The notes below the pieces were generated by a model that was given only the letters and a program-made list of their open reading frames with translations, did not search any database and was not told the DNA's origin. Below are positions 7,807 through 64,000 of a DNA stretch of 64,000 nt, in pieces (the stretch's first letter is position 1; each line of letters opens with the position of its first letter). Source of the stretch: Gammaproteobacteria bacterium (GTDB taxonomy: Bacteria > Pseudomonadota > Gammaproteobacteria > BMS3Bbin11); assembly GCA_013150915.1 (NCBI GenBank), contig JAADJE010000031.1, positions 11,139 to 75,138 on the forward strand. The letters are read 5' to 3'. Made by a program: the position numbers and the translations under genes.

Positions 7807-7812
7807 AACATT

Positions 7813-7897: not shown

Positions 7898-7918
7898 TAA
7901 TTATTAAATAGGGGTGCC

Positions 7919-8063: not shown

Positions 8064-8131
8064 GTGCGATTCGCTTTTTTGTCACGCGAAGGGGGGAGCG
8101 ACATGCCAAGAGCTACGGTCAATATTATAAA

Positions 8132-9012: not shown

Positions 9013-9015
9013 CAG

Positions 9016-12637: not shown

Positions 12638-12661
12638 AGAAATCAGACAGGCACAAAAGAC

Positions 12662-16058: not shown

Positions 16059-16068
16059 GGGGGGCATA

Positions 16069-16560: not shown

Positions 16561-16584
16561 CTGTATGAAGGTATATAAAAACCT

Positions 16585-17190: not shown

Positions 17191-17245
17191 CCGGGGTTTA
17201 CTCACATGGGTTTACGGACAAAGGATAAATGACCAGGACTTTATA

Positions 17246-17551
17246 ATGATTGCTTTATCAGACTATTTGATACTAGGCGCCATACTGTTCTCGATTAGTG
17301 TGACCGGGATCTATTTGAACAGGAAAAATGTCATCATCCTGCTAATGTCTATCGAGTTGATGCTGCTCTCAGTCAATCTCAACTTTATTGCCTTTTCGTA
17401 TTATTTGAATGATCTGGCAGGACAGGTCTTTGTGTTTTTTATCCTTACCGTAGCGGCAGCAGAATCTGCAATTGGCCTGGCCATAATCATTGTTCTATTT
17501 CGGCGCAGGCATACCATTAACATCGAAGATTTGGACAGTTTAAAGGGATAG
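17246..17551 (+). CDS. nuoK: NADH-quinone oxidoreductase subunit K
   Basis: 101 aa from the internal ATG ([15 protein letters not shown]…); the longer 17171 ORF start would overlap nuoJ and add a non-conserved leader. Confidence 0.88.
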
Positions 17552-17552
17552 C

Positions 17553-19532
17553 ATGATGGATGACATGAAACTCATTTATCTAGCAATCCCATTAGTGTGT
17601 TTGTTTGCTGCACTGATAGCGGGAGTCTTTGGGCGCCAGATTGGCCGTGTTGGGGCACACAGTATCACCGTGGCGGGTGTAGCAGTAGCCTTTGCCCTAT
17701 CGCTCTATGTCTATCTAGATGTGATTGCAGGCAATACATTCAATGGCACTATATATATCTGGGGTGTCAGTGATAACTTTCCCTTTGAAGTGGGCTTTCT
17801 GATTGATAGCCTGACTGCCACCATGATGGTGGTAGTGACCTTTGTTTCACTGATGGTACATATCTACACCATTGGTTATATGCGTGATGATCCGGGCTAT
17901 CAGCGTTTCTTTAGCTATATCTCCTTATTCACTTTTGCAATGCTTATGCTGGTGATGTCGAATAACTTCCTGCAGTTGTTCTTTGGCTGGGAACTGGTCG
18001 GGCTAGTTTCCTATCTATTGATCGGTTTCTGGTATACCCGAGAGACCGCAATTTACGCGAACATGAAGGCGTTTTTGGTCAACCGTATTGGTGACCTTGC
18101 CTTCCTGATTGGTATCGCTGCGATATATGCCACATTTGGTACGCTGGACTACAGTGCCGTTTTTGCCTCAGTACCGGAAGTACTCGGGCAGACCATTGAA
18201 ATTCTGCCAGGCAGTGAATGGAGCATCATTACCTTTATCAGTATCCTGTTGTTCATTGGAGCCATGGGAAAATCAGCCCAGGTTCCATTACATGTCTGGC
18301 TACCTGATTCAATGGAAGGTCCGACACCTATCTCTGCATTAATCCACGCAGCGACTATGGTGACCGCTGGCATATTCATGGTGGCACGTACCTCACCCAT
18401 ATTTGAATTTTCAGAAACTGCATTGAGTGTGGTGATGATCATCGGTGCGATCACAGCATTTTTCATGGCCTTACTTGGTCTGGTACAAAACGACATCAAG
18501 CGTGTTATTGCTTACTCAACATTGTCACAGTTGGGTTATATGACAGTAGGTCTTGGCGCATCGGGCTATGCGGCATCCATTTTCCATCTAGGCACCCATG
18601 CGTTTTTCAAAGCGCTGCTTTTCCTCGCTGCAGGCTCTGTCATAATCGCCATGCACCATGAGCAGGATATGCGCAAAATGGGAGGGCTTAGGAAGTTTCT
18701 GCCCTGGACTTATATCACGGCAGCGATTGGCTCACTGGCACTGGCTGGTATTCCACCCTTTGCTGGATTCTTCTCCAAGGACATGATCATTGAAAGCGTA
18801 CACCAATCAGAGTTATTCGGTTCCGGTATCGCCTATGCAGCCGTACTGAGCAGTGTAGTACTGACCGCCTTTTATTCTTTCCGTTTAATGTTTATGACAT
18901 TCCATGGTCGCCCACGTATGGATCAGCATACGTTGCAGCACCTGAAAGAATCACCAATGGTCATTGTACTGCCCTTACTGCTTTTGGCGATTCCTTCCGT
19001 GATCGCAGGTGCCTTATTTATTAATCCTATGGTTTTTGGTGATTACTTTTCGGGTGCAATTTTTGTTTTACCACAGCATGATGTAATCGGCGCGATTGCG
19101 GAAGACTATCAGGGGAAATCAGACCTGGCAGTTGTGTTCAGCTTTATGTTTCACGGTATTCTTCAGCCGCCATTCTGGCTGGCTATCAGCGGCATATTTC
19201 TTGCGTGGCTGTTTTATATTCGACTACCGGAATTGCCGGGTAAGGCCGTTGCATTAGTCAAGCCTCTGTATAGCCTGTTGATGAATAAATATTACATTGA
19301 CGAATTTAACCAGAAATTCCTCGCTAACGGTACGGTTGGTGTGGGTCGTCTCTTGTCAAAATTCGGCGATACGATATTTATCGATGGCTGGCTTGTGAAC
19401 GGTACTGCAAAAGTGATTGGCTATTTCTCAAGAGCATTAAGGCCACTGCAGTCGGGACTGGTCAATCACTATGCTTTTGCCATGATAATCGGTCTATTGG
19501 TACTGATGACCTGGTTTGTACGAATTAATTAA
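17553..19532 (+). CDS. nuoL: NADH-quinone oxidoreductase subunit L
   Basis: 659 aa antiporter-like subunit with long C-terminal extension (lateral helix). Confidence 0.92.
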   Translation: MMDDMKLIYLAIPLVCLFAALIAGVFGRQIGRVGAHSITVAGVAVAFALSLYVYLDVIAGNTFNGTIYIWGVSDNFPFEVGFLIDSLTATMMVVVTFVSLMVHIYTIGYMRDDPGYQRFFSYISLFTFAMLMLVMSNNFLQLFFGWELVGLVSYLLIGFWYTRETAIYANMKAFLVNRIGDLAFLIGIAAIYATFGTLDYSAVFASVPEVLGQTIEILPGSEWSIITFISILLFIGAMGKSAQVPLHVWLPDSMEGPTPISALIHAATMVTAGIFMVARTSPIFEFSETALSVVMIIGAITAFFMALLGLVQNDIKRVIAYSTLSQLGYMTVGLGASGYAASIFHLGTHAFFKALLFLAAGSVIIAMHHEQDMRKMGGLRKFLPWTYITAAIGSLALAGIPPFAGFFSKDMIIESVHQSELFGSGIAYAAVLSSVVLTAFYSFRLMFMTFHGRPRMDQHTLQHLKESPMVIVLPLLLLAIPSVIAGALFINPMVFGDYFSGAIFVLPQHDVIGAIAEDYQGKSDLAVVFSFMFHGILQPPFWLAISGIFLAWLFYIRLPELPGKAVALVKPLYSLLMNKYYIDEFNQKFLANGTVGVGRLLSKFGDTIFIDGWLVNGTAKVIGYFSRALRPLQSGLVNHYAFAMIIGLLVLMTWFVRIN

Positions 19533-19547
19533 TGAGACCGCCCTTAC

Positions 19548-21029
19548 ATGTTTGAAGTTAATCAATTAAGCCTCGCGATCTGGTTGCCGATAATCGGTGG
19601 TATTGCGGTGTTAACAATAGGTAATGATCAACACGCAGCACGGGTAAGGGTGGTTGCTTTGCTGGTCAGTATTGCAACATTCCTGGTAACACTGCCGCTG
19701 TATATCAGCTTCGACAAAACAGTGGGCGAGATGCAGTTTATCGAACATCTTCGGTGGATACCGGCACTGAATATAAATTATTCTCTGGGGATAGATGGTA
19801 TTGCTCTGTTACTGATCCTGTTAACGGCTTTTATTACCATTATTGTAGTGATATCTGCCTGGCAAGTGATTCAGGAGAAGGTGGCACAATACATGGCAGC
19901 CTTCCTGATTATGGAAGGGCTAATGATAGGTGTGTTTTCAGCCACTGACGCCATTTTATTTTATGTTTTCTGGGAAGCTATGTTGATACCCATGTTCCTG
20001 ATTATTGGTATATGGGGTGGGCCGAACAGGATTTACGCCACGATAAAGTTCTTCCTCTATACCCTGCTTGGTTCATTATTAATGCTGGTGGCGCTAATCT
20101 ATCTTTACGTCAAAAGTGGCAACAGTTTCGCGCTTGCCGATATGTATGCCGTGAAGCTCAACCTAACTGAGCAGATATGGTTGTTTGCCGCATTTTTCAT
20201 GGCCTTTGCCGTCAAAATACCAATGTTCCCAGTGCATACCTGGCTGCCTGATGCGCATGTTGAGGCTCCCGCAGGCGGTTCTGTGGTGCTGGCGGCAATT
20301 ATGTTGAAGATGGGCGCCTACGGCTTTATCCGATTCAATTTACCCATCACTCCAGATGCCAGTCACAGCCTATCAGGTGTCATTATTGCTCTGTCACTAA
20401 TCGCTATAGTCTATATCTCCATGGTTGCACTGGCGCAGACAGACATGAAGAGATTGATTGCCTACTCGTCGATCGCACACATGGGGTTTGTCACGCTGGG
20501 TTTGTTTGTGTTTAACAAGATGGCGGTGGAAGGTGCGATCATCCAGATGATCTCGCACGGTTTTATCTCCGGGGCAATGTTCCTTTGTGTCGGCGTGCTC
20601 TATGATCGTATGCACACACGGAAGATGAGTGACTATGGTGGCGTGGCGAATACGATGCCTAAATTTGCAGCATTTATGATGTTTTTTGCAATGGCCAATG
20701 TTGGCCTGCCGGGGACTTCCGGTTTTGTCGGTGAGTTCCTGGTGATATTGGGTGTCTTCCAGGTTAACGCATGGTACGCAATCATCGCTGGCACGACTTT
20801 GATTCTGGGGGCGGCCTACACTTTGTGGATGTATAAACGGGCCATTTATGGTGCCGTGAGCAATGACATGGTTAAGGCGCTAAAGGATATCAACAGCAGA
20901 GAAGGTTTCTTCCTGCTGATACTTACTCTTAGTGTACTCATCATGGGGCTATGGCCGGCGCCATTCCTGGAAATCATCCATACTTCTGTCGACAAGCTGC
21001 TTACGCTTTCGGCAGTAAGCAAACTGTAA
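19548..21029 (+). CDS. nuoM: NADH-quinone oxidoreductase subunit M
   Basis: 493 aa; HTWLPDAHVEAPAGGS motif. Confidence 0.92.
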   Translation: MFEVNQLSLAIWLPIIGGIAVLTIGNDQHAARVRVVALLVSIATFLVTLPLYISFDKTVGEMQFIEHLRWIPALNINYSLGIDGIALLLILLTAFITIIVVISAWQVIQEKVAQYMAAFLIMEGLMIGVFSATDAILFYVFWEAMLIPMFLIIGIWGGPNRIYATIKFFLYTLLGSLLMLVALIYLYVKSGNSFALADMYAVKLNLTEQIWLFAAFFMAFAVKIPMFPVHTWLPDAHVEAPAGGSVVLAAIMLKMGAYGFIRFNLPITPDASHSLSGVIIALSLIAIVYISMVALAQTDMKRLIAYSSIAHMGFVTLGLFVFNKMAVEGAIIQMISHGFISGAMFLCVGVLYDRMHTRKMSDYGGVANTMPKFAAFMMFFAMANVGLPGTSGFVGEFLVILGVFQVNAWYAIIAGTTLILGAAYTLWMYKRAIYGAVSNDMVKALKDINSREGFFLLILTLSVLIMGLWPAPFLEIIHTSVDKLLTLSAVSKL

Positions 21030-21039
21030 CGGTTAGTCC

Positions 21040-22488
21040 ATGAGCAATATATTCGCAGACATCCAGCTTGCCACTCCCGAAATTTTCGTGTTTTCTATGG
21101 CTTGTGTAATCCTGTTGCTCGACAAAGTCACCCATGAACGTATGCCAAAGGCGAGTTTTTTACTGACACAGCTTACTCTGCTTGTGGGTTTATACCTGGT
21201 TACGATCACCGTTCCGGAAGGAGGCTCGATAAAGGCATTCAATGATATGTTTGTCCTTGATGGTATGGCGGTGCTGAGTAAACAGGTTATTCTTTTCCTG
21301 ACATTCGTCGTGCTCATTTACTCCTATTCGTATATTACTGAACGCAAGATGTATCGCGGTGAGTATTTTGTCCTGATCCTGAATGCAGTGCTCGGAATGA
21401 TGGTAATGACTTCAGCCAGTCATTTCTTAACCATTTATATTGGCCTTGAGTTATTATCATTGTCGCTCTATACACTTGTTGCTATGAACCGTGATTCTGA
21501 TCTAGCAACTGAAGCGGCGATGAAATATTTTGTCCTGGGTGCTCTGGCCTCCGGCCTTTTGCTCTATGGTATGTCGATGATCTACGGTGCAACAGGTAGC
21601 CTCGATATAGAAACCATCAGAAGCGCCATACAGGGAATGGAATCAGATGATACCATGCTGATTCTTGGGCTTGTTTTCATTATAGTGGGAATTGGCTTCA
21701 AGCTTGGTGTCGTACCCTTCCACATGTGGATACCCGATATCTATCAGGGTGCGCCGACTTCGGTTGTTCTGTTCCTGGGGACTGCTCCCAAGGTTGCCGC
21801 ATTTGCCTTTATCATGCGTTTGTTAGTGGATGGTTTTCAGGGTCTTGCTGAAAACTGGTCTGATATGTTGACTATCATTGCCGTGCTCTCTATGGCGACG
21901 GGTAATATACTGGCAATAATTCAGACCAACCTGAAGCGCATGCTGGCTTACTCAACTATTTCTCATATGGGCTACTTCCTGCTGGGTATACTGAGTGCTA
22001 ATCCAAATGGATACAGTGCATCCCTTTTCTATGTCATTGTTTATTCGTTCACCAGTCTGGCGGCATTTGGTCTTATTATTATGATGTCACGAGCTGGGTT
22101 TGAAGCAGAAGAAATTAGTGATTATAAGGGATTGAATAAGCGACACCCGTGGTTTGCGTTTCTGGTAGCCCTGGTTATGTTTTCCATGGCCGGAATACCA
22201 CCGACTGTTGGGTTCTTTGCCAAGTTATCCGTTATTCAGGCTCTAATAGATGTAGAAATGTACTGGCTTGCTGTTGTTGCAATACTGTTTGCAGTTATCG
22301 GCGCCTACTATTACCTGAGAATTATCAAAACTGTGTACTTTGACAAACCAGAAAGAAATGAGCCGATAACGGCCAGGTTTGGCATGCAGTTCGTACTAAG
22401 TGCGAATGTGTTTGCACTGGTGCTCATTATGCCATGGATCGGTGTAATAATGGATGCTGTCAGTAACGCAATCAGTGCCATGGGGTAA
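21040..22488 (+). CDS. nuoN: NADH-quinone oxidoreductase subunit N
   Basis: 482 aa; FHMWIPDIYQGAP motif. Confidence 0.92.
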   Translation: MSNIFADIQLATPEIFVFSMACVILLLDKVTHERMPKASFLLTQLTLLVGLYLVTITVPEGGSIKAFNDMFVLDGMAVLSKQVILFLTFVVLIYSYSYITERKMYRGEYFVLILNAVLGMMVMTSASHFLTIYIGLELLSLSLYTLVAMNRDSDLATEAAMKYFVLGALASGLLLYGMSMIYGATGSLDIETIRSAIQGMESDDTMLILGLVFIIVGIGFKLGVVPFHMWIPDIYQGAPTSVVLFLGTAPKVAAFAFIMRLLVDGFQGLAENWSDMLTIIAVLSMATGNILAIIQTNLKRMLAYSTISHMGYFLLGILSANPNGYSASLFYVIVYSFTSLAAFGLIIMMSRAGFEAEEISDYKGLNKRHPWFAFLVALVMFSMAGIPPTVGFFAKLSVIQALIDVEMYWLAVVAILFAVIGAYYYLRIIKTVYFDKPERNEPITARFGMQFVLSANVFALVLIMPWIGVIMDAVSNAISAMG

Positions 22489-53235: not shown

Positions 53236-54228
53236 TCATTTTTTACTTAAACGGTAGGCCAGTTGCCGTGCGCCCAGTAGCCCCGCCTGCTGATTCAGAA
53301 TAAGTTTTACAGGAATCTTTTTAAGTAATTTTTGCATGGGACTCTTATTGCTGAAAGCCGTCAAAAATGCGGGTGACTGCATGAACGATACATTTTTTGC
53401 CGCGATCCCACCGCCAATATACAGGCCATCATACGGCAGGGTAGTCAGAGCCAGATTTCCGGCTTGTGAACCATATATTGTTGTAAAAAGAGTCATCGCC
53501 TGGGCCGCCAGAGACTGATTATCTTTTTGAGCGGCACGACTAATAGCTACTGGATTGCTGGTTGTCAATTTGCTGTTTAACTCAGGGTCAACCAGCTCCG
53601 GATGCTGTTGTTCGAGGAAATGATAAATATTAACGATCCCCTGACCTGAAAGAACCTTTTCACAGGAGATGCGCGGGTGTTCTTTGCGCAGGTAGCTGGC
53701 AAGCTTAAATTCAATATCAAGGACAGGGGCGTAATCCGCATGCCCGCCTTCCATCCCGTACACCTCATACCGGTTTTGCTGGTAAACCAGCAGCGCTTCC
53801 CCCAGGCCCGTACCGGCACCAATTATGGCCCTGCGGGTACCGGCCTGTGCCTGTCCTTCCTGCAGAACCAGGATGTCATCCTTGTTGAGTACTTCGATGC
53901 CATAACCAATAGCCTTGAAGTCATTAATAATTTTTACGACAGGAATATCGAATTGTGCTGCCAGCTCGAGGTTATTGATTTGCCAGGGGAGGTTGGTTAC
54001 CTGTACAGATTGTTTCTCATCTTCAGTTGCAACGGGACCCGCGACAGCAAGACAGGCGATTTGGGGTTTGGGCTGCCCCTGGAGAAAAACATCCAGTGCC
54101 TGATCGAAGGATTTATATTCCCCGCTTATCAGGCGTTGCTGGTAGATAATATTTAATTGGTGATTGCCGATGTCACAAAGCTGTAACAGGGTCTTTGTGC
54201 CGCCAATATCGGCCGAGAGAATAACCAA
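53236..54228 (-). CDS. glk: glucokinase
   Basis: 330 aa ROK-less Glk family: ADIGGTKTLLQL phosphate-1 motif, overall collinearity with E. coli Glk. Confidence 0.85.
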   Translation of the reverse strand: MVILSADIGGTKTLLQLCDIGNHQLNIIYQQRLISGEYKSFDQALDVFLQGQPKPQIACLAVAGPVATEDEKQSVQVTNLPWQINNLELAAQFDIPVVKIINDFKAIGYGIEVLNKDDILVLQEGQAQAGTRRAIIGAGTGLGEALLVYQQNRYEVYGMEGGHADYAPVLDIEFKLASYLRKEHPRISCEKVLSGQGIVNIYHFLEQQHPELVDPELNSKLTTSNPVAISRAAQKDNQSLAAQAMTLFTTIYGSQAGNLALTTLPYDGLYIGGGIAAKNVSFMQSPAFLTAFSNKSPMQKLLKKIPVKLILNQQAGLLGARQLAYRLSKK

Positions 54229-54471
54229 AACAGTGTACCTCTTGCTGCACTTTCATCCAGAAACCAGAAAAGCCCCCCGCTAGGGATTATACCCTGTATA
54301 AGGATGTTTTCCTGATACATTTGATGTAAATATCTCGGTCAAAACAGGGTTCTTTCTCTTTCCTGTAGCAAGGATCAGCACATTTCTGGCGTTGTTTTTA
54401 GAAGTAATGCAGCAGTCCTTTAACTTTCCAGGTTGATGAGTTGTTCAGGTAGTCGGTACGGGTACAGGCCT

Positions 54472-56865
54472 TCATTCAGGTTCTACGACTTCGATCCGGT
54501 AACTGCCTCGTGTTTTCCCATCTGCCGTGTTCGCTTCGATGGTGAAATGCAACGATTCGCCGATGCCCAGTGTCTTTACCGGCAAGGTGATCCTGTGCAG
54601 GTCAAAACCCGCAGGTGTTGTTTTCACCTCATTGGTATCCGGTGCGTCGCCGACCAGAAATTGTATAGTGGCAGGTTGTGGCAGGCAGATACACAGGGCC
54701 TCGCCCTGGAAAATCGTATCGATGGGCGCCATGGGTGTCCATACCGCGAGTATCGCCTTCGGGCGTTGGCCATCATAGCGCTCCCATACCGTGTCGAGCC
54801 GGTCCACGGGATAGCCCGCAGCGCGAGAATGCGCCAGTTTGATAAATTCCGCGTGGGCCCATACCAGCGGCATCGCCGATCCTGTCGCCTGGCCGGGGTA
54901 CAGTCGCCGTTCGGGGATGGGTTCGGCATCCCAGACCTGCTCCGGGAGCATGCCGCCGCGTCCTGCCATTGCGGCCATGGCACCCAGATAGGGCAGGGGG
55001 TCGTTGCCGGCCAGCAATTCGTAGTGGCCACGCTCCCCTGTGAGCAGCGGCCAGGGGCGACCGTGGCCGGTGCCATTGAAAGCAGAACCATCACGGTGTT
55101 CGCCATAGCCGTCTCCATTGTAGCGGTACCAGGCCGAACCATTCGGCGTCTCCGCCCTGAGCAGGGCATCGACGACCCGGACGCTGTCCCTGATCAATGG
55201 GTCATCGGCTCGCCGTAACCCGAAACGCACCAGCTGTAGAAAGTCAGTGCTGATCTGTTCCGCTGCGGATAACCCGGGATCCTGCAGCCGATTCTTGATG
55301 GGTAACTGCTGGCTCACCGCTTCCTCATCCATAATCGCTTTTGCTGGTGCAGTTCGAATGTAATAGCCGGCTACCCCGTGCTTTCGTGCCAGCGCGGTAT
55401 CGCGCACAACGGTCCATGATTCGATCCGGCTGTTCCAGAAGTCTGCGATGGCCAATGAAGTTTCCCGGTTCTGGCCCTTCAGGAAATCCGCACCGCTGAC
55501 CAGTGCGGCAATACAGATCGCCAGGGTAAAAGTGTTGACTCCTGCATTTTCCTCCCAGCGATCCTGGTCGGAGGCGGGGCCGTTGTGCGCGATGAAGCTA
55601 AGGGCGCGGGATACCATGTCAGCAACCTCGATACCATCCAGCGATCCACGCGCTGCAAGCTCTGCCGCCAGCAACACCGGGAATGCGGCTTCGTCGAGCT
55701 GGGTCCCCTGCCAGTAAGGTTTTCCACCGAGCCACTGGTTCTGGTACCAGTGGCCGTCTTCGAGCTGGGTGGCAATAAGATAACGCAGGATTTCGCGTGC
55801 CTTGTCATCCGCCCCCAGCATTAATAGCGCACCCGCGCTTTCTACCAGGTCGCGTGGCCAGACCAGGTGGTAGCCACCGCGTTCGTTGCGCGTTTCGCCC
55901 CAGGGGATGCTGAGGCTGGCAATCATGGCACCGGTAAAAATCTGATCCTGATGGGTGCGTAGCACCATCGCCGAGATTTTTAATTCATTGAGCAGGGCTT
56001 CGGGCAGATCCAGGTTGAGTGCGCATCGCAGGTCGCAGTTCGAATGCCAGTCGCGCCAGTCGTTGATCTGTTGTTGCCATGGACTGTCAAAGGATCTCGG
56101 CAGGGCGGACAGAGCCACTGTGGCAGCTGATTCCCTGCTGCTGGCAAAGCCGAGCGCCAGTACCGAGTAGCGGGGCAGACCGCCGGTCAGTGCAACATTA
56201 CCGGGACCGGCCTGCTTGTAGCGCCAGTGCATGGCTCCGTTACGATTGAAGTCCTGCCAGCCGTCGCTACCACCGACATAACCGGCACTGACTTCCTGCC
56301 AGGCATCACGCTGGTTGGTGTCCACGGCCGCCAGCGCCAGGCCGAATGGACCCTGTTTCGCCCACAGCACACGGCGGCCTCGGTAGCGCGCTACCGCGGC
56401 CTGGTTGTCATAACCGGTCCCTCCCAGGCGGGGGGCCAGCAGCACATAGGGCCGCAACGATGCGTCACCTTGCAGCCGGCATTCAATCAGTAGCACATCG
56501 CGCTGTGGATCGGGTGTGATGCGGAGTGTCAGCGTGAAACGTGGGTGCCGGTGGATCAGGGTGTAAGCGGGTATGCCGGGCTCGGGCTGGCTGAGGGTAT
56601 AATCATCCAGACGTTTGACCTCTACCCAGAAGCCGGCACCATCGGCGATGATGAAGCCGAGATCGCGGATCTGCGGCAGGTCGACACGTGGATAGTAGAC
56701 CTCATTGATGATACCTCGGCCGAGTGTAAACCACAGGCGTGACGGCCCCAGCGAACACCCCACGGCATTCTTGCGCCCACCGCTCCAGGTCGGTGGGATA
56801 CCTGGTCTGCCGGGTGCATGGCCGGTAACCTCGTAGGACTCAGAAACGAGTGGCAACTCGCTCAT
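54472..56865 (-). CDS. glycoside hydrolase family 15 protein (glucoamylase/trehalase-type)
   Basis: 797 aa; N-terminal beta-sandwich plus (alpha/alpha)6 catalytic domain with GH15 hallmarks VWPRDLVESAGALL and catalytic DRWEENAG; visibly GC-richer than upstream genes. Confidence 0.85.
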   Translation of the reverse strand: MSELPLVSESYEVTGHAPGRPGIPPTWSGGRKNAVGCSLGPSRLWFTLGRGIINEVYYPRVDLPQIRDLGFIIADGAGFWVEVKRLDDYTLSQPEPGIPAYTLIHRHPRFTLTLRITPDPQRDVLLIECRLQGDASLRPYVLLAPRLGGTGYDNQAAVARYRGRRVLWAKQGPFGLALAAVDTNQRDAWQEVSAGYVGGSDGWQDFNRNGAMHWRYKQAGPGNVALTGGLPRYSVLALGFASSRESAATVALSALPRSFDSPWQQQINDWRDWHSNCDLRCALNLDLPEALLNELKISAMVLRTHQDQIFTGAMIASLSIPWGETRNERGGYHLVWPRDLVESAGALLMLGADDKAREILRYLIATQLEDGHWYQNQWLGGKPYWQGTQLDEAAFPVLLAAELAARGSLDGIEVADMVSRALSFIAHNGPASDQDRWEENAGVNTFTLAICIAALVSGADFLKGQNRETSLAIADFWNSRIESWTVVRDTALARKHGVAGYYIRTAPAKAIMDEEAVSQQLPIKNRLQDPGLSAAEQISTDFLQLVRFGLRRADDPLIRDSVRVVDALLRAETPNGSAWYRYNGDGYGEHRDGSAFNGTGHGRPWPLLTGERGHYELLAGNDPLPYLGAMAAMAGRGGMLPEQVWDAEPIPERRLYPGQATGSAMPLVWAHAEFIKLAHSRAAGYPVDRLDTVWERYDGQRPKAILAVWTPMAPIDTIFQGEALCICLPQPATIQFLVGDAPDTNEVKTTPAGFDLHRITLPVKTLGIGESLHFTIEANTADGKTRGSYRIEVVEPE

Positions 56866-56871
56866 GTTAGT

Positions 56872-58239
56872 TCAGGCTAGCCGGCCGAGTAACACCTGTG
56901 CCGCCAGTCCAATGCCCAGGGTAAAGGTGAAGGTGATCCCCAATACCCACTTTACCAGTGGTATCGGCGCGGAACCTGATGCTGTGATAATGGGTTGCTG
57001 ATACATTGGTACGATTATACGCAGATACACCGCCAGTGACAGCACACTGTTGAGTATGGCTATTACAGCAAGCCAGGTGAAGCCTGCCTCAATCGATGCA
57101 CCGAACAACAGAAACTTGCCGACGAAGCCGGCGAGTGGCGGGATACCGGCCAGTGAAAGAAGAAACACCACCATTGCTACACCTATAGCAATATTTTTAC
57201 GCCCGATGCCAGAGAATACATCAAGCGTTCGACCTGCATGCATAACGACAGCAAAGGCACCCAGATTCATTGCGGCGTAGGCGGCAGAAAAAACAATAAT
57301 GGACGTAAATGCGAGTGGGCTCGCCCCCACCGCGACAATACCGATAAGAAAATAACCCGCCTGGGCAACCGACGAATAGGCGAGTAGTCGCACAATATTG
57401 TCTTGCACCAACGCAGCCAGATAGCCATAGGTCATAGTTATCACAGAGACCACAGCAATGACCAGCGGCCAGCCTGTACTCATGGGTAAATCGCGAACCA
57501 CCTGTGTCAGGGCCAGGATTGCACCAATCTTGGGTACTACCGACAGATAAGCGGCTATCGACACGGGCGCACCCTCGTAGGCATCCGGTGCCCAGAAATG
57601 AAATGGCACCAGTGAGGCCTTGTAACCCAGTCCGACGATGACGGCGATCAGGCCAACGGCGGCGACAACCGGTTTTTCTTCAAGGCGGGATAGATCGCTA
57701 AGCAGTGTCGAACCGGTGCCGCCGAACCAGTAACTGAGACCAAAGATCATGATAGCACCGGTGACTGCGGCGAAGACAAAAAATTTCATGGCGGCTTCGG
57801 TGGCACTATCATTACGCGGATAAGCGACCAGGGCAAAGGAACCGAGGCCTGACAGCAATATGCCCAATACGAGCAGCATGCTGTCACCGGCACCGGCTAG
57901 CACCAGGGAACCCAGGGTCACAAAACAGACCAGACTGTAAACAGTACCTTCCCGGTCACTGCCACCAAGTTCTGTACGTGCCAGCAAGACAGACAGTACG
58001 GTCGCGGGCAACAAGATGAGTTTGGCCCAGACACTCAGCATATCTATGCGGAACGTGCCACCGAATATGCTGGTATCCGCGCCAAGCAGGGGCAGGGTCA
58101 TGCCGGTCGCGAGCAGTAGTCCGGTAACTGTAACTGTCAGTGCAATACGGGGCAGGCGCAGCATCTCAGCCACCAGTGCGACGACACCAGTCAGCAGCAC
58201 GATGATCTCAGGGATAATTAAGGCGAGATCACGCTCCAT
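56872..58239 (-). CDS. complex I-like antiporter-type subunit, NuoN/ND2-like (divergent second copy)
   Basis: 455 aa, ~14 TM; FHFWAPDAYEGAP motif; high GC. Confidence 0.8.
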   Translation of the reverse strand: MERDLALIIPEIIVLLTGVVALVAEMLRLPRIALTVTVTGLLLATGMTLPLLGADTSIFGGTFRIDMLSVWAKLILLPATVLSVLLARTELGGSDREGTVYSLVCFVTLGSLVLAGAGDSMLLVLGILLSGLGSFALVAYPRNDSATEAAMKFFVFAAVTGAIMIFGLSYWFGGTGSTLLSDLSRLEEKPVVAAVGLIAVIVGLGYKASLVPFHFWAPDAYEGAPVSIAAYLSVVPKIGAILALTQVVRDLPMSTGWPLVIAVVSVITMTYGYLAALVQDNIVRLLAYSSVAQAGYFLIGIVAVGASPLAFTSIIVFSAAYAAMNLGAFAVVMHAGRTLDVFSGIGRKNIAIGVAMVVFLLSLAGIPPLAGFVGKFLLFGASIEAGFTWLAVIAILNSVLSLAVYLRIIVPMYQQPIITASGSAPIPLVKWVLGITFTFTLGIGLAAQVLLGRLA

Positions 58240-59708
58240 CAGAATTGCAGTGCCGCGGTGGTCTTGTGAATAACATCAAGCACCCAGGCCGGGACGACGC
58301 CCACCGCGACGATCAGTATCAGCAGTGGGCTCAACGCAAGTACTTCACGCACATTCAGATCGGCCATGTTTGTCCACTTTTCACGAGGTTCGCCGAGAAA
58401 CACCTTGCCAATGGCTCTCAGGTACAGGCCCGCAGTAATGACGATACCAAGGATGGCAATAACGGCCACGGGTTCAACCTGCAGTGTCGCCAGGAAGATC
58501 TGGAACTCGGCCGGAAAGTGAGCCAGTCCAGGCAATCCCAATGAAGCAAACGCGGCGAGTACGAAGGACCAACCGAGTATCGGTATTACATTCAGTAACC
58601 CTCCAAACTGATCCATCTCCCGGGTATTGGCGCGATCCTGCAACATGCCAACCAGTAAGAACAATGCACCGGTGACCAGTCCGTGGCTGACCATTTGCAG
58701 GACCGAGCCGTCCAGTGCGGTAGCACGAATCGCTGGATCGGTTGCCAACGCTGCAATCGCCACCCCGATGATGATATAACCCATGTGATTGACCGAGGTA
58801 TAGGCGACCAGGCGTTTGAGATCGCTCTGTGCCAGTGCGGCGAAGGCACCGTAGAGAGCAGCGACTACGCCGAACACCAGGATGACGATCCCGGCGTCAC
58901 GAAAGGCATCCGGTGTCATCTGAAATGCAAAGCGTACCAGACCATAGGTGCCGAATTTCAGCATCACCCCGGCGAGGATCACGCTGCCCGCAGCCGGTGC
59001 CTGGACATGTGCCGCAGGCAGCCATGTGTGAAACGGGAACACCGGCGTCTTGACCGCAAAAGTAATCAGCATCGCTACCAGTGCAAGCATGGCCGCAGTA
59101 CCATTTAATGGTGGGTTGCTGATCCAGTCGCGCATGTCGAAGGTATGTGGGTCGCTACCAAGATATAAGCCGAGAATGGCAAGCAGTAACGGCAGGCTGC
59201 CGAGAAATGTATAGATAAAAAACATCAGCGCTGCGCGTTGACGATCTTCATGTCCCCATTCAGCAATCATGAAGTACATGGCAACCAGCGACACCTCAAA
59301 GAAAACATAGAATAAAATTGCATCCAGCGCGGTGAAGACGCCAATAGAAGCCGTCTCCAGCAATAGCATCAGCGCGACGAAGGCATGAGATTGTTTGCGG
59401 ACCTTGGCAGAATAAATAAAGGTCACGAAGAACAACAGCGCAGTTAGCAGTACCAGAGGCAAACTAATGCCATCCACGCCAACACGGTAGGCAGCGCCAA
59501 TTGAAGGCATCCAGTCGAGCTGTTCAAGCTGGGCAAAGCCTGTCTCGTTAACACCGCGTGACCACATCCTTACCACACCCATGAGTGTCAGCCCGCTGGT
59601 AACGATGCCGATGGTGTGTACGACCTGTACGGGAGCTTTGCGCAAGGTCATAACAAGCAGCGCTCCAAGGAGCGGCAGGAACAGGGTGATGGACACGATG
59701 GGCAGCAT
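58239..59708 (-). CDS. complex I-like antiporter-type subunit, NuoM/ND4-like (divergent second copy)
   Basis: 489 aa; FHTWLPAAHVQAPAAGS motif. Confidence 0.8.
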   Translation of the reverse strand: MLPIVSITLFLPLLGALLVMTLRKAPVQVVHTIGIVTSGLTLMGVVRMWSRGVNETGFAQLEQLDWMPSIGAAYRVGVDGISLPLVLLTALLFFVTFIYSAKVRKQSHAFVALMLLLETASIGVFTALDAILFYVFFEVSLVAMYFMIAEWGHEDRQRAALMFFIYTFLGSLPLLLAILGLYLGSDPHTFDMRDWISNPPLNGTAAMLALVAMLITFAVKTPVFPFHTWLPAAHVQAPAAGSVILAGVMLKFGTYGLVRFAFQMTPDAFRDAGIVILVFGVVAALYGAFAALAQSDLKRLVAYTSVNHMGYIIIGVAIAALATDPAIRATALDGSVLQMVSHGLVTGALFLLVGMLQDRANTREMDQFGGLLNVIPILGWSFVLAAFASLGLPGLAHFPAEFQIFLATLQVEPVAVIAILGIVITAGLYLRAIGKVFLGEPREKWTNMADLNVREVLALSPLLILIVAVGVVPAWVLDVIHKTTAALQF

Positions 59709-59723
59709 TCAGGAGTCTCCTTA

Positions 59724-61553
59724 TCAATAAACCAGTAAAGCCAGCAACAGGGCGGCGAGGATCAGCGCAGTTCCCACGACAGTGATTGCCATTTCACGGT
59801 GAATCAGGCCGCTCTGCAATGAGCGGGCGCGGCTGCCGAGTTCGACCGTGTTGCGCACCAATGAAAATATCAGCCCGTCGATGCCTTGTTCGTCATTGCG
59901 GCGTACGGCTCGACCGATATCGAGTCCAAATCGACCCACTGCAAATACGCCTGCGTACAGGATGCGTTCCAGCCTTTCACAGCTGCGGGCGATGGCGAAT
60001 GCGGGCCGCACCATCAAGTTATCGAAACCGCCGGCAATGGTAAAACCCTGCTGTACCCAGGGTAACAAAGGGCCAAGTAGTCGCCGCGCCGTGAAGAACC
60101 AGCCAAGTATCAAACCACCCACTGCTGCACCCAGCCCGAAAATTTCGGGGGGAAATCGGGTGGGGGTGTTTTCGGGTAGGCGGGTGTTCAGCAAGGTCTC
60201 GATAGCAGGGAAGGCGACACCCAGGATAACGGCCAGTGTGACCAGTCCGGCCAGTCCCGCACCCATCCAGTATAGCCCCACGATCTTGTGGCTCTTGCGG
60301 TCACCATGCCACAGGATGCGCAGCGCTCGGGCCATGTAGGCGCCGGTCAACAGGGTGCCGGCCAGCGCCAGCGGCGCAAGTAATAGCACGTTGGGTGAGG
60401 CCAGCGAGGCGGCAATAATGGCTTCCTTGGAAAAGTAGCCACTCATAGGAGGGATACCGGCCAGCGCCAGTGCTGCCAGTGCATAACCGAAAAATACGCG
60501 TGGTCTATCACGCCCGGCACCTTGCAGATTTACCAGTACCGTGCTGTTACGGCTGTGCTGAAATATACCAGCACCAAGAAACAGGCCACTCTTTATGGTC
60601 GCGTGAGCGATCAGGTGCAGCAGTGCCGCCAGTGGCACACCGGCGCCCACGGCCACCAGCATCAGGCCGTACTGGCTGGAAGTTGATGCGGCGGTCAGGC
60701 GTTTTAGATCACGCTCGCCCAGCGCAATCAGGCCGGTGACCACGGTGGTGACGCCACCGACGAGGCCAATCACCAGTAGCACCTCAGGCGGCAGCATCGG
60801 CGCCACACGGATCAGCAGGATGGCACCAGCCGCCACCAGAGTGGCCGAGTGCAGCAGCGCCGAGACCGGTGTGGGACCGGCCATGGCGCGCTGTAACCAG
60901 TCGTGTAACGGTGTTTGTGCGGACTTGCCCATCGCCGCGACAAGTAAGAAGAACCCGGCCGCAATAGCCGCATTGCCTCCGGTGTTCAGTGTGGTAGCTA
61001 TATCGCTGCTGCCGGCGCTGGCAATAAGAATGAACACCGCGATATAGAGCCCCAGATCGGCGCTGCGGGTAACCAGGAAGGCGCGGGTGGCGGCTGATGT
61101 GACACCCGGTCGGCGGTACCAGAAGCCGATCAACAGATAACTGCTCAGGCCAATAAGTTCCCATGCCGCGAGCAGCAAAATCCAGTCGCCGGCAAGTACC
61201 AGAGTTTGCATGGCCGAGACGAACAGCAGCATGGTGGCGAAGAAACGTACTTTTTCACTGTCCTTTTTCATGTAGCCGACGGCATAAACCAGCACCAGGC
61301 TGCTGACCCCAGCAACCAGGGTTGAAAGCAATGCAGTCAGCGGCGTCGAGATAAGACGCAGTGGCATATCCGGCAGGCCGGGCAAAATCAACTGATTGCC
61401 CTGGCCATTAAAAGCGTCAGCCAGCAAGTACAGACTGGCGAACATACCAACAGCAGCACCCAACAGCGCCAGCGCTGCGGGGAAACGCCGCAGTAGCAGG
61501 ATCAGCACCATCATGGAGAGAGGCGCAAGAATGGCTGCGGCTATGAGGTTCAT
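59724..61553 (-). CDS. complex I-like antiporter-type subunit, NuoL/ND5-like (divergent second copy)
   Basis: 609 aa; NuoL-like helices plus C-terminal extension; conserved GWEL(I/V)GL…SY…IGFW region. Confidence 0.8.
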   Translation of the reverse strand: MNLIAAAILAPLSMMVLILLLRRFPAALALLGAAVGMFASLYLLADAFNGQGNQLILPGLPDMPLRLISTPLTALLSTLVAGVSSLVLVYAVGYMKKDSEKVRFFATMLLFVSAMQTLVLAGDWILLLAAWELIGLSSYLLIGFWYRRPGVTSAATRAFLVTRSADLGLYIAVFILIASAGSSDIATTLNTGGNAAIAAGFFLLVAAMGKSAQTPLHDWLQRAMAGPTPVSALLHSATLVAAGAILLIRVAPMLPPEVLLVIGLVGGVTTVVTGLIALGERDLKRLTAASTSSQYGLMLVAVGAGVPLAALLHLIAHATIKSGLFLGAGIFQHSRNSTVLVNLQGAGRDRPRVFFGYALAALALAGIPPMSGYFSKEAIIAASLASPNVLLLAPLALAGTLLTGAYMARALRILWHGDRKSHKIVGLYWMGAGLAGLVTLAVILGVAFPAIETLLNTRLPENTPTRFPPEIFGLGAAVGGLILGWFFTARRLLGPLLPWVQQGFTIAGGFDNLMVRPAFAIARSCERLERILYAGVFAVGRFGLDIGRAVRRNDEQGIDGLIFSLVRNTVELGSRARSLQSGLIHREMAITVVGTALILAALLLALLVY

Positions 61554-61861
61554 CCTTTCAACTCTGCCGCTTCTTCCATTTCCACGGAGCCTTTGGCGCG
61601 GAAGCGTGCAATGGCTACGCCGAATCCCACCGCCATCTCTATCGCCATCACGGTCATTATGATCAGTACGAACATTTGACCGGCAGGGTTGTCCGGGTGC
61701 AGGTAGCGCCAGAATGCGACCAGGTTGACCATGGCTCCGGCAAGAATCAGTTCTATCCCCATCATGATCATCACCAGATTGGTCTGCGACAGTGCACCAT
61801 AGATGCCGACACCAAACAGCGCGGCGCCAGTGATTAGTGCGAGAAGAAGTTCAATACTCAT
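61550..61861 (-). CDS. complex I-like subunit NuoK/ND4L-like
   Basis: 103 aa, 3 TM; conserved glutamates in TM2/TM3 (MGIELILAG…AIEMAVG). Confidence 0.75.
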   Translation of the reverse strand: MSIELLLALITGAALFGVGIYGALSQTNLVMIMMGIELILAGAMVNLVAFWRYLHPDNPAGQMFVLIIMTVMAIEMAVGFGVAIARFRAKGSVEMEEAAELKG

Positions 61862-62376
61862 TGTTCACGAGTCCTTTTAACAGGTTGTATGGCCACCGCC
61901 GTAGCAGCAATCATGGCGGTAAGAATGGTGATTCCGGCAGTTTCAAAAATCAGCATTGAACGACCCAGCAGTTCAAGGCCCAGATCTATAGTCTGTTGTG
62001 CAGCATCCGGTGAAACGCTGGCCACAGGTCCCCAGTCGACAAATACGGCTACGGCCACGGCGGCCACGAAGGAAACAATTCCGGCGCCTAAGGAGAGGCG
62101 CTTCTGATGAGTCATGTCCATCTCACCAAGTCCGCCGGGATCCATCATGAACATCACCATAAAAATAGCCATGATGCTCATTTCAGTGGCCATCATCATG
62201 ATTTGTAATACGCCGAGGAACTCCGCCTGCATACTCAGAAACATCGCACCAAGAGCCGTCTGAGAGAAAAGCAGAGCCAGCGCAGAACGTACCATCGAAA
62301 ACGTGCGGAAAACAACGATACCGAACCACACTCCGGCGAGTCCGAAGAAACCAATGAAGAACATTTGAGCAGTCAT
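61858..62376 (-). CDS. complex I-like subunit NuoJ/ND6-like
   Basis: 172 aa; N-terminal helices align with nuoJ of the first operon (…SQTALGAMFLSMQAEFLGVLQIMMMATEMSIMAIFMVMFMM…). Confidence 0.7.
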   Translation of the reverse strand: MTAQMFFIGFFGLAGVWFGIVVFRTFSMVRSALALLFSQTALGAMFLSMQAEFLGVLQIMMMATEMSIMAIFMVMFMMDPGGLGEMDMTHQKRLSLGAGIVSFVAAVAVAVFVDWGPVASVSPDAAQQTIDLGLELLGRSMLIFETAGITILTAMIAATAVAIQPVKRTREQ

Positions 62377-62507
62377 TTTACTGGGTACCTCAGTTGAACG
62401 GTTCGTAGTAGTTCACCAATAAAATGAACCGAGGCACAGCTTTTAACAAAGTTGTTGTGTCCATAATGTCAGGCTCATAAATTAGCGGTCAATTGTGGAA
62501 CCCAGGA

Positions 62508-63404
62508 TCAGGGAAACACCAGTACGAGTACACCAACGAGAAGTATATTCAGCAACGCCAGTGGGATGCCCAGCATCCAGCACCATGCCAGCAGGTCTGC
62601 TTCGCGGATGCGTGGCATATAACGCCCGGCCAGCAACATTATCGTGGTAACTGCCAGTATTTTGATTGTGCTCCATGCCCAGGGCGGTAGTAATGGTCCC
62701 TGCCAGCCACCGAGGTAGAAAATTACAGTGGCGGCCGCCAGGGTGATAATCAGCGCCAGGCGTCCCAGCCGGAATACCGCCAGCCGTACGCCGGCATATT
62801 CAGCTTCTACGCCGCCTGCGAGTTCGCCTTTCGATGTAGTTAAATCGAATGGCGGTAGAAATGCCAGTGCCATGGCCGCGATGAAAAACAGGATAAATCC
62901 CAGTGGTTGATAAATAATGTTCCATACACCTGCCTGGGAGACAACGACCTGTGTCGTCAGTAATGATTCGGCACGCATCACGACGGCGGTGATGGGCATA
63001 ACGATTAGCATTGCGTAGGCGATAAGCTGGCCCAGAAAACGCCAGCCACCGATCATGGCATAGGCACCATCCGGACCCCAGCCCGCCATCAGCAGGGCAA
63101 CCAGGACGTAGACCAGCGCCGCATTGATGAACAATGCGCCAGTAGCCATATCTGTGATGATCAGATCTGGAGTTAGCGGCACGACGGCTGCTGCGAGTAT
63201 TGCAGAGATCAACAGCAGAAACGGGGCGACTTCAAAGAAAATCCGGTCGGGTTTGCGCGGTACAATGGATTCCCGCCCCAGCAGTGCGATGCCGGCAAGT
63301 ACCGGTGCGGTCAGCCGAAATCGTCCGCTCACAGTCCAGTCTTCGAGTACTGCGACCAGATACGCACCAACCGCCAGCAACAGCAGCAAAAGAACGGTTG
63401 TCAT
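62508..63404 (-). CDS. complex I-like subunit NuoH/ND1-like (HycD/EchB-like)
   Basis: 298 aa, 8 TM; FDLTTSKGELAGGVEAEYAG corresponds to NuoH FDxxEGESELVAGxxxEYSG loop. Confidence 0.75.
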   Translation of the reverse strand: MTTVLLLLLLAVGAYLVAVLEDWTVSGRFRLTAPVLAGIALLGRESIVPRKPDRIFFEVAPFLLLISAILAAAVVPLTPDLIITDMATGALFINAALVYVLVALLMAGWGPDGAYAMIGGWRFLGQLIAYAMLIVMPITAVVMRAESLLTTQVVVSQAGVWNIIYQPLGFILFFIAAMALAFLPPFDLTTSKGELAGGVEAEYAGVRLAVFRLGRLALIITLAAATVIFYLGGWQGPLLPPWAWSTIKILAVTTIMLLAGRYMPRIREADLLAWCWMLGIPLALLNILLVGVLVLVFP

Positions 63405-64000
63405 TGCCGCACCTCCCAGGGTGATAGATCCAGGGAACTGACCGCCAGCAGTGCGTCGCCCAGCTCCTGCTGTTCGATCAGTGGGTTGATTAGTGCAAGA
63501 TGGTGCGTCGAAGGTGTGTCCAGTTGTGCCGTAGTAACCTTACCCATCTCCAGTGTTAGTCGAAGTCTGGCCACCCCGCGAGGGGTCTCGACTACCGCTT
63601 CGCCTGTTCCCGATATTTCGCCGATAATGGCCGGTACAGGTAACTCTATGGCGCCAGCCGCTTCGATAAGCGCGAGGCTATGTATTATCTCATCCAGGCG
63701 GACATGCAGGCGAGCGAGGGCATCACCTGTCTTTCGACTGACTGTTTTGAACCCTAGTGTAGTACAGACCTTGTCTGCACTGCGTGCATCGTCGCCGATC
63801 CCAGTAGCGCGTGCCACAGGGCCACGCAGTGTGGCATCCGTTGCTAGCAGGCCAACACCTGCCATTCGTGATTTCAGTAAAGGAGTTCGTTGCAATCGTT
63901 TAGTCAGGGTCAATATGGCTGGTTTTAGCGCCACGATCTGTTCCAGGTCGGCATGCTGGAACTTCAATTGTAGAGAGGCGGTGCGTCGCATTAGCCAGTC
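63401..64000 (-). CDS. complex I 49-kDa/NuoD-like subunit, partial (5' end beyond window edge), lacking hydrogenase Ni-binding cysteines
   Basis: C-terminal 196 aa align with NuoD C-terminus (…VETPRGVARL… ~ [10 protein letters not shown]; …TPSTHHLALINPL… ~ [13 protein letters not shown]); no C-terminal CxxC. Confidence 0.7.
   Translation of the reverse strand, partial: DWLMRRTASLQLKFQHADLEQIVALKPAILTLTKRLQRTPLLKSRMAGVGLLATDATLRGPVARATGIGDDARSADKVCTTLGFKTVSRKTGDALARLHVRLDEIIHSLALIEAAGAIELPVPAIIGEISGTGEAVVETPRGVARLRLTLEMGKVTTAQLDTPSTHHLALINPLIEQQELGDALLAVSSLDLSPWEVRQ

Follow-up and report, generated by a model that had tools for sequence, protein, structure and literature searches.

We analysed a 64,000-nucleotide stretch of a gammaproteobacterial genome (contig JAADJE010000031.1 of assembly GCA_013150915.1, positions 11,139 to 75,138), here called the window, which carries two sets of genes related to respiratory complex I. 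The first is a canonical nuoA-N operon at 8132-22488. It is complete, has separate nuoC and nuoD genes and contains all the expected motifs, and we used it as the internal reference for residue comparisons. The second, the subject of this study, is a co-directional run of D-, H-, J-, K-, L-, M- and N-like genes at the end of the window; we mark its genes and products with a prime. The original prediction, made from the window alone, had recognized both sets and had described the second as a distinct energy-converting module, perhaps a proton or sodium pump with a different electron input or with none. Coordinates and family matches bear out its account of the two gene sets.

All genes of the second set lie on the minus strand. 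In the direction of transcription, the run begins with the 3' part of a NuoB'-HMBD-NuoD' fusion gene (63401..64000, last 199 codons; Pfam Complex1_49kDa, E = 8e-16), where HMBD is a heavy metal-binding domain. This gene runs past position 64000, and the window holds only its NuoD-like C-terminal half. Next come genes for a NuoH-like subunit of 298 aa (62508..63404; Pfam NADHdh, E = 1e-55), a methionine-rich NuoJ-like subunit of 172 aa (61858..62376; Pfam Oxidored_q3) and a NuoK-like subunit of 103 aa (61550..61861; Pfam match and residue alignment). The run ends with three antiporter-like subunits: NuoL-like, 609 aa (59724..61553; Pfam Proton_antipo_N and Proton_antipo_M), NuoM-like, 489 aa (58239..59708; TIGR01972 NDH_I_M at 502 bits, above the cut-off), and NuoN-like, 455 aa (56872..58239; Pfam/NCBIfam match and residue alignment). 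The genes overlap by 1-4 nt or stand 15 nt apart, except between H' and J', where the sequence reads as a non-coding gap of 131 nt (62377..62507, same strand) at the canonical position of nuoI.

Every open reading frame (ORF) of the second set matches the expected Nuo family in Pfam and NCBIfam. Most score under the equivalog cut-offs, which indicates that the second set is divergent. Identities to the window's canonical copy are 23% for D, 29% for H, 27% for J, 40% for K, 36% for L, 38% for M and 32% for N, with L, M and N each pairing correctly with their counterparts. This range of 23-40% agrees with the high divergence originally predicted. The motifs quoted in that prediction are also there: M' contains FHTWLP, N' contains FHFWAPDAYEGAP and H' has the ExE loop. 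Nuo models score better than Mrp and hydrogenase-4 models against the second-set proteins, as profile searches of each subunit show (NuoL': NuoL PRK06590 375 bits versus MrpA 239 bits; NuoM': NDH_I_M 502 bits versus HyfB 202 bits). We therefore reject membership in the Mrp family, from which the set also differs in its subunits; an MrpA-G set is absent, and the earlier exclusion of an Mrp layout holds.

The window NuoH' is the database protein P0001, and the D-like fragment is identical to the C-terminus of P0122 (GXP23_04300). Both proteins come from one 83,215-bp contig of a gammaproteobacterial metagenome-assembled genome (MAG). NuoH' has more than 1700 homologues, the best 120 of which are 80-100% identical. 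We read past position 64000 by way of near-identical relatives and not on the window's own contig. Four assemblies, among them 'bacterium BMS3Abin11', encode a NuoH' with 98% identity to that of the window. Their operon starts with a gene for a 120-aa NuoA-like protein, followed by a gene for a 658-753-aa protein that ends in the NuoD-like domain; genes for a fatty-acid cis-trans isomerase (CTI), a permease and a decarboxylase lie further upstream. Across 16 loci mapped by tblastn and five annotated plasmid loci, the complete order comprises eight genes: nuoA', the NuoB'-HMBD(1-5)-NuoD' fusion, H', J', K', L', M' and N'.

No NuoE, NuoF or NuoG homologue occurs in the operon at any of these 21 loci, and the genes upstream of nuoA' are unrelated. 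Separate nuoB, nuoC or nuoI genes are absent from the operon at every locus examined, as are extra conserved small genes. Within the window, the H'-J' gap (62377-62507) holds no ORF, and a six-frame search of the whole window for the ferredoxin motif CxxCxxCxxxCP returned only the two copies in canonical nuoI at about 16.3 kb. Thiogranum has no such gap, its H' and J' genes being directly adjacent. The claims that nuoE/F/G are missing and that no nuoI stands between the H- and J-like genes thus hold beyond the window, and the 98%-identical relatives supply what precedes the NuoD-like gene: nuoA', then unrelated genes, with no nuoB, C, E, F, G or I. An ordinary second nuo operon is rejected because no nuoE/F/G/I lies upstream in the relatives.

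We also considered a pseudogene or decaying duplicate, and reject it: the reading frames are intact, the genes are as long as in relatives, and comparison of all six genes with the 98%-identical locus L003 and with Thiogranum longum (L001) gives dN/dS of 0-0.21. The second-set genes are functional and under strong purifying selection.

The operon is widespread. Hosts are Thiogranum, a second gammaproteobacterial MAG, two Marinobacter, Alloalcanivorax, an Alcanivorax-like contig and Sulfuriferula. Further loci occur in Pelagibacterium, Mesobacterium, Pontivivens and Paracoccus, and 12 plasmids of Roseovarius, Sulfitobacter, Paracoccus, Thioclava, Nitratireductor and Rubrobacter (Actinomycetota) carry it, so that the 18 loci beyond those with 98% identical NuoH' take in Alpha-, Beta- and Gammaproteobacteria as well as Rubrobacter. 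When contigs were scanned with the fusion alignment, about 13 of 80 loci were informative, most matches being to the HMBD alone in unrelated proteins. Database labels for the products are NADH-quinone oxidoreductase subunits, 'heavy metal-binding domain-containing protein' and 'Ni,Fe-hydrogenase III large subunit'.

Full-length relatives of the fusion protein are 546-786 aa long and consist of a NuoB-like N-terminal domain, one to five HMBD repeats and a NuoD-like domain. P0122 is annotated at 334 aa, with its start at the internal Met of a conserved FMSM motif. At locus L009, the frame upstream of the annotated start is open through four HMBD repeats, and the short annotation of P0122 is therefore a start-site miscall. 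Gene callers often cut the fusion to its 334-aa NuoD' part or split it, probably on account of TTG/GTG starts and the repeats. Repeat number varies from 1 to 5 over a set of loci that includes L015 and L092, and it differs among near-identical genomes, with three repeats in L003 (8025-10001), five in L008 (407-2668) and four in L009 (407-2527).

The NuoB remnant (residues ~10-130) gives weak, consistent matches to NuoB and MbhJ over SPRHAxVLLVVG...YAQM.RPR. All four cysteines that bind cluster N2 in NuoB (CC, C129 and C158) are replaced or deleted in 14/14 members when compared with E. coli and the window's canonical NuoB. The remnant is followed by one to five copies of PF19335 HMBD with the sequence Y-T-C-P-M-H-P-E-V-x-x-D-x-P-G-S-C-P-K-C-G-M, in which Y-x-C-x-M-H...P-G-x-C-P-K-C-G-M is invariant. 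The three fusions scanned have three to five matches each (E = 1e-39 to 1e-72), and the copies are spaced by His/Asp/Met-rich linkers. The best solved matches to this stretch are the N-termini of the copper P-type ATPases 3rfu and 8ovl. The inserted repeats are predicted to be metal-binding domains of the CopA/CusB type. The 'HMBD' of the APE1/PCC1 paper has an ATX1-like fold and is irrelevant here.

An invariant segment, H-x4-F-M-S-M-x-x-x-T-x-D-x-P-x-S-x-D-G-L-x-M-x-W, precedes the NuoD-like domain; H318, F323, M324, S325 and M326 are invariant in the fusion. Within NuoD', the beta1-beta2 loop reads GPFFPGLPGG in place of GPxHPxxHG, the quinone-binding Tyr has become an invariant Pro, and about 100 residues are deleted. 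The window's D-like C-terminus is GSLDLSPWEVRQ, without CxxC; the terminal GSLDLSPWE contains no cysteines. Neither the N- nor the C-terminal NiFe CxxC position of NuoD' has a Cys. We therefore reject a group-4 [NiFe] hydrogenase (Ech/Hyc/Hyf/Mbh), as the original prediction had done from the missing C-terminal CxxC. No NuoC or NuoI domain was found inside the fusion at Pfam E <= 1. An AlphaFold2 model of the relative P0131 (predicted template modelling score 0.72) has an alpha/beta N-terminal domain and a C-terminal domain of NuoD/HycE fold, with Foldseek matches to HycE and NuoD at E ~1e-13 and target-normalised TM scores of 0.6-0.67. In this model the HMBD repeats lie on a flexible linker of low predicted local distance difference test (pLDDT) score.

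Since NuoB' lacks the N2 cysteines and NuoD' lacks both the quinone ligands and the NiFe cysteines, the peripheral stump offers no place to bind Fe-S clusters, flavin, NiFe or the head-group of a quinone. The 11-subunit complex I-like enzymes (NDH-1, Fpo and the 'Nuo11' of anaerobes) likewise lack NuoE, NuoF and NuoG and use other input. However, they retain NuoB with N2, NuoC, a NuoI that has two 4Fe-4S clusters and the quinone site of NuoD; in the window family each of these is absent or dead.

Membrane-arm subunits from 14-15 members of the family were aligned with those of E. coli and of the canonical copy in the window; residue numbers are those of E. coli. NuoL' keeps E144, D178, K229, H254, D303, H334, H338, K342, K399, D400 and D563 in 15/15 members (D400 as D or E); the D563 equivalent stands in the C-terminal stretch that is the lateral helix in E. 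coli. NuoM' keeps E144, K234, K265, H322, H348 and E407, also in 15/15. Two of the three antiporter-like modules, L' and M', are intact. NuoK' keeps E36 and E72 (its own E37 and E75), and NuoA' keeps D79 and E81. NuoN' keeps K158, K217, K247 and K395, with E133, the Glu of transmembrane helix 5 (TM5), replaced by Leu or Val and K295 by Val. NuoH' keeps E220, E228, K274, R293, D213 and E71; E157, E216 and D63 are replaced, and the conserved ER..GPN loop after TM1 is deleted. In NuoJ', Y59 has become Met, and a new conserved Glu follows three residues later.

Methionine is strongly enriched in two membrane subunits. The family mean is 10.6% in NuoJ' versus 3.3-3.5% in canonical NuoJ, and 9.5% in NuoK' versus 3.2-5.0% in canonical NuoK. 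NuoL', NuoM' and NuoN' contain 2.7-3.9% Met, and their canonical counterparts no less. The overall Met content of A' and H' is not raised, yet both have family-specific Met beside E-channel carboxylates. Of the 16 Met conserved in the NuoJ' family, 14 have no Met counterpart in either E. coli or the canonical copy of the window. The window's NuoJ' has Met at 60, 61, 62, 66, 69, 73, 75, 77, 78, 86 and 88, as well as E65 and H90. M62, M66, M69, M73 and M77 lie on one face of TM3, within an 80-degree arc, the face of the E-channel residue Y59. Conserved Met also flank E37 and E75 of K' (at positions 31, 34, 63, 69, 72 and 76), the carboxylates of the A' motif FDMEMAYM and the site of the lost E157 of H' (at E. 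coli-equivalent 158 and 162). In complex I, J, K, A and H are the subunits that form the quinone cavity and the E-channel. Among 1.84 billion representative proteins, NuoJ' has 323 relatives at E <= 1e-3; the closer ones are rich in Met and in some cases carry a His-rich tail, and canonical NuoJ proteins with 1-5% Met stand at the bottom of the match list. NuoJ' is a small, distinct subfamily.

Compared with respiratory complex I, the family shares homologues of A, H, J, K, L, M and N in canonical order, the NuoD fold, and the conserved channel residues of L' and M', E36/E72 of K' and D79/E81 of A', with N' and H' partly altered. Complex I has an N-module (E, F, G), NuoI, NuoC, the N2 cysteines and the quinone ligands, none of which the window set has. 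Conversely, a Cys-less NuoB fused to NuoD, HMBD repeats and Met-enriched J' and K' are found in the window family and not in complex I. By its sequence, the family is a derivative of complex I without redox cofactor sites.

A membrane arm of this kind might still borrow the canonical peripheral arm (NuoB, C, D, E, F, G and I, from the operon at 8.1-22.5 kb) and form a second isoform of NADH dehydrogenase, and a complete canonical nuoA-N operon is indeed present in the same genome. We consider this very improbable. The set's own redox-dead NuoB'/NuoD' stump would fill the docking site, and H' has lost the loop that touches the peripheral arm. Plasmids carry the operon too, as does a Marinobacter whose reported main NADH dehydrogenase is Nqr (PMC8233155).

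We next turn to gene neighbourhoods, in which copper-homeostasis genes recur at distances of a few kb or less from the operon. In Thiogranum these are cusRS, the multicopper oxidase gene copA, copB, a cupredoxin gene and a YHS gene. Marinobacter vulgaris and M. lipolyticus have cusRS-cupredoxin-copA-copB immediately upstream, and in the Alcanivorax-like contig cusCBA and a DUF411 gene are immediately upstream on the same strand. Mesobacterium has a P1B-ATPase gene immediately downstream. On plasmids, the operon is near copA, copB, plastocyanin and a cation diffusion facilitator (CDF) transporter in Roseovarius; near cusAB, copper oxidase, cupredoxin and copB in Sulfitobacter, where two ISKra4 copies bracket it; near MerR, multicopper oxidase, DUF1775 and CopD in Nitratireductor; and near a P1B-ATPase, two CsoR-type regulators, a four-helix-bundle copper protein, multicopper oxidase domains and DUF305 in Rubrobacter. 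In total, copper-homeostasis neighbours occur in about half of 18 contexts, representing at least seven independent lineages in two phyla.

In Marinobacter atlanticus, a 'complex I-like' nuoADHJKL cassette interrupts the genes of a copper-resistance operon, and a published transcriptome shows the two to be co-expressed (Eddie et al. 2021, PMC8233155). Judged from its description, this cassette is probably homologous to the window operon. That report speculates, with no sequence analysis, that the cassette pumps ions driven by copper redox chemistry, a proposal that it draws from co-expression with the cop genes. In such a pump, Cu(I) at the HMBD repeats or NuoD' would be oxidised, with electrons passing to quinone or another acceptor and ions moving outward. 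The Cys/His/Met sites of the HMBD could in principle be redox-active, and the scaffold comes from a redox-driven pump. However, the Fe-S ligands, the flavin/NADH module and the quinone-binding His/Tyr are all gone. The potential span from Cu(II)/Cu(I) to ubiquinone is too small for proton pumping, and production of Cu(II) in the cytoplasm would have no obvious benefit. We regard copper-driven redox pumping as improbable and give it little credence.

The same neighbours bear on the direction in which a metal would move. A proton-motive-force-driven copper importer, or a metallochaperone platform that delivers Cu(I) to the cytoplasm or to cuproenzymes (cbb3/aa3 oxidases, N2O reductase), would show metal-binding and Met-ladder features identical to those of an exporter. 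Some neighbours (CopD, YcnI-like proteins, cupredoxins) are linked to copper acquisition, and many of the hosts, being sulfur oxidisers or denitrifiers, have a high demand for copper. However, the commonest neighbours serve efflux or detoxification (cusCBA, P1B-ATPases, the multicopper oxidase genes copA/copB, CsoR), plasmids and islands flanked by insertion sequences (IS) are typical of resistance determinants, and cytoplasmic HMBDs are found on exporters. Import is thus quite unlikely in our estimation.

The copper arm might instead act only as a sensor. In this case the complex would be a metal-regulated Na+ or K+/H+ antiporter, switched on when the HMBD arm senses copper, as a way, for instance, of adjusting pH or membrane potential under metal stress. 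L', M', K' and A' keep the channel residues common to Mrp and complex I, the HMBD repeats sit on the flexible low-pLDDT linker typical of regulatory domains, and half of the loci have no copper genes nearby. The N-terminal metal-binding domains of P1B-ATPases are largely regulatory, which also favours a sensor. On the other hand, regulation leaves unexplained both the concentration of Met around carboxylates in the TM helices of J', K', A' and H' and the invariant FMSM segment where the N-terminus of NuoD' faces the cavity; moreover, thioethers do not coordinate the hard cations Na+ and K+. A copper-regulated antiporter for these cations is therefore unlikely, in our view.

We conclude that the operon probably encodes a redox-inactive, metal-linked ion translocator derived from complex I. 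The HMBD fusion, the Met-enriched E-channel subunits and the copper-gene company, none of which entered the original prediction, together point to a metal/proton antiporter that consumes proton-motive force, not to a proton or sodium pump. Thus, of the earlier reading as a distinct module, the option of no redox input is strengthened (no N2 cysteines, no quinone ligands), whereas the proton or sodium pump gives way. The specific function we favour is a proton-motive-force-driven Cu(I)/Ag(I):H+ antiporter on a complex I scaffold that exports cytoplasmic copper, for which we judge the chances to be a little short of even.

In this mechanism, cytoplasmic Cu(I), and probably Ag(I), would be captured by the HMBD repeats and the His/Met-rich linkers. 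The next site to receive the metal would be the invariant H-x4-FMSM...DGLPMDW segment, ahead of the NuoD' beta1-beta2 loop; the corresponding region of NuoD in complex I dips into the quinone cavity. From there the metal could pass along a putative thioether ladder in the former quinone cavity and E-channel, formed by M62/66/69/73/77 of NuoJ' TM3, the Met beside E37/E75 of K' and those beside the D/E residues of A', and be let out to the periplasm. CusA and Ctr1 conduct Cu(I) via methionine clusters or relays. The driving force would come from protons entering by way of L', M' and N', which would give Cu(I):H+ antiport akin to Na+/H+ exchange by Mrp. Periplasmic detoxification would be completed by multicopper oxidase/CopB or CusCBA systems, which are often encoded next door.

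Several observations weigh against copper export by antiport. The HMBD-bearing part of the gene lies beyond the window, and we reconstruct it from the start-truncated P0122 and close relatives. Copper genes are missing within 10 kb in roughly half of the contexts, among them the window and its closest relatives (neighbours GH15, glucokinase, glucose-6-phosphate dehydrogenase (G6PD) and CTI), Sulfuriferula, Pelagibacterium, Pontivivens, Paracoccus, L011, L012 and Thioclava. NuoN' is without the TM5 Glu and NuoH' without several E-channel glutamates, so the charge relay from the cavity to the antiporter modules appears altered, and coupling may be different or absent. The Met enrichment may have a different role, for example in Ag(I) handling, in sensing or in scavenging oxidants. 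Finally, outward transport is a putative direction, suggested by likeness to CopA/CusB and by the resistance-gene neighbours.

How does this family relate to known systems? Its closest mechanistic analogue is Mrp (Mnh/Pha), a redox-free member of the superfamily in which proton flow via NuoL/M/N-like subunits is coupled to the passage of another cation in the region of the small subunits. However, Mrp consists of an MrpA-G set with MrpB, E, F and G, and has no NuoA, NuoH or NuoD homologues, peripheral stump or metal-binding domains; the proposed substrate of the window family also differs, being a soft metal. Legionella-type CopA has the same HMBD at its cytoplasmic N-terminus, and CopA and CusA share genomic neighbourhoods with the operon. 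In the P1B-ATPase CopA and the RND protein CusA, however, the membrane part is unrelated in sequence and fold, and transport is driven by ATP or carried out by an RND trimer, as opposed to proton-motive force. We found no E1-E2 ATPase or ACR_tran core in the operon proteins; the HMBD is all that is common, and the ATPase and RND genes are separate neighbours.

Ehr is an umbrella term. As cited in PMC6349859 and PMC4758237, Ehr denotes a large-subunit homologue without NiFe cysteines together with antiporter-like subunits. The window set fits this general description, which does not specify a particular family, only in its lack of NiFe ligands. Ehr complexes are related to group-4 hydrogenases, and redox coupling to partners, formate dehydrogenase for instance, has been proposed for them. 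The window set, in comparison, lacks any Fe-S subunit and combines HMBD repeats with a membrane arm of complex I type, in which A, J, K and three antiporter subunits follow Nuo order; it is by description that we set the two apart. The M. atlanticus cassette resembles the family in that its large subunit is annotated 'NiFe-hydrogenase III large subunit', as some family members are, and in being embedded in cop genes, as the operons of M. vulgaris and M. lipolyticus are. By its description it differs in having seven genes, without nuoM/N and the NuoL C-terminal extension, and the report contains no domain analysis and does not mention Met enrichment or redox-ligand loss (PMC8233155). Two candidates from the literature, Nitrospina NUO-2 and an HMM survey of complex I variants, describe different things. 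In the literature we found no named family with this gene order, the M. atlanticus cassette being the only passing mention. Thus, as the original prediction had implied, the set is neither an ordinary nuo operon with E/F/G/I upstream, nor decaying, nor, as far as we found, part of a family already named for this order.

Other features of the loci concern mobility and regulation. In the window, GC content is 0.51-0.59 in the second nuo-like set and 0.61 in the GH15 glucoamylase gene, compared with 0.41-0.52 in the canonical nuo operon and about 0.47 in the rest. The step falls at about 54.4 kb, between the glucokinase and GH15 genes, and this contrast suggests that an island at 54472-64000 was acquired horizontally. 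The GH15 glucan 1,4-alpha-glucosidase gene directly follows NuoN' in the window (region 53236-56865) and in BMS3Abin11-like genomes (L003, region 16540-19990); in Thiogranum longum (L001, 18094-20496) it follows NuoN' with one flavoprotein gene inserted between. Genes for glucokinase and G6PD lie beyond GH15, and a functional link to the operon is not evident. On plasmids, operons are bracketed by ISKra4/IS5 transposase genes (L096, 7641-8999 and 19570-20916; L098, 9220-9989 and 19740-21098). An identical NuoH' (WP_009827258.1) occurs on a Roseovarius and a Sulfitobacter plasmid, and a Tn7-like tniQ/tniB/transposase module follows the operon in L094 (21992-28242). The IS-bracketing and this module are consistent with an operon that moves as a cassette.

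A scan of the second-set region for sigma-70 promoters and terminators gave no more matches than shuffled sequence. At six alphaproteobacterial loci, a promoter-like motif of the extracytoplasmic function (ECF) sigma type, TGTAA[TC]-N15-18-GCGTC, lies 125-131 nt upstream of nuoA' (position 9508 in L013, L014 and L015; 12488 in L094; 10573 in L096; 10041 in L098). This motif has 11 matches in 816 kb on both strands and is absent from the gamma- and betaproteobacterial loci. In L015, a second copy at 7075 lies at the 5' end of an ORF called as an ECF-like sigma factor gene (7013-7777). A divergent gene for a DUF6629 membrane protein stands just upstream of nuoA' in L012, a chromosomal MAG locus (7421-8107), and in L094, a Roseovarius plasmid (11673-12359); it may be accessory or co-regulated. 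The Thiogranum longum operon is flanked by two flavoprotein genes (L001, 6466-7650 and 16669-18021) that are absent from the other loci examined. The upstream protein has a Pyr_redox_2 domain and is weakly like type III sulfide:quinone reductase, and the downstream protein is a disulfide reductase like glutathione reductase and MerA.

We propose that this family is a member of the complex I/Mrp superfamily with a new architecture and, as proposed here, a new substrate. It may represent an unrecognised class of heavy-metal transporter, in which a cofactor-free complex I scaffold has a quinone cavity and E-channel relined with Met for Cu(I)/Ag(I) and the antiporter modules give the driving force; we advance this class tentatively, with appreciably less than even confidence. 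For annotation, thousands of database entries are labelled NADH-quinone oxidoreductase subunits or Ni,Fe-hydrogenase III large subunit and pass for respiratory complex I in metabolic reconstructions, which the present reading corrects. If the proposal is true, the family would provide a fourth route for expelling cytoplasmic copper, besides P1B-ATPases, RND pumps and CopB-type systems. Export would be powered directly by proton-motive force on the largest known antiporter scaffold, and the system is plasmid-mobile in marine and hydrothermal bacteria. The central open question about complex I is how an event in the quinone cavity reaches proton channels up to 200 Å away, and this family would be a natural experiment on that question. 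Redox chemistry would be replaced by cation binding while L' and M' are canonical, and coupling could then be studied with a simple ion.

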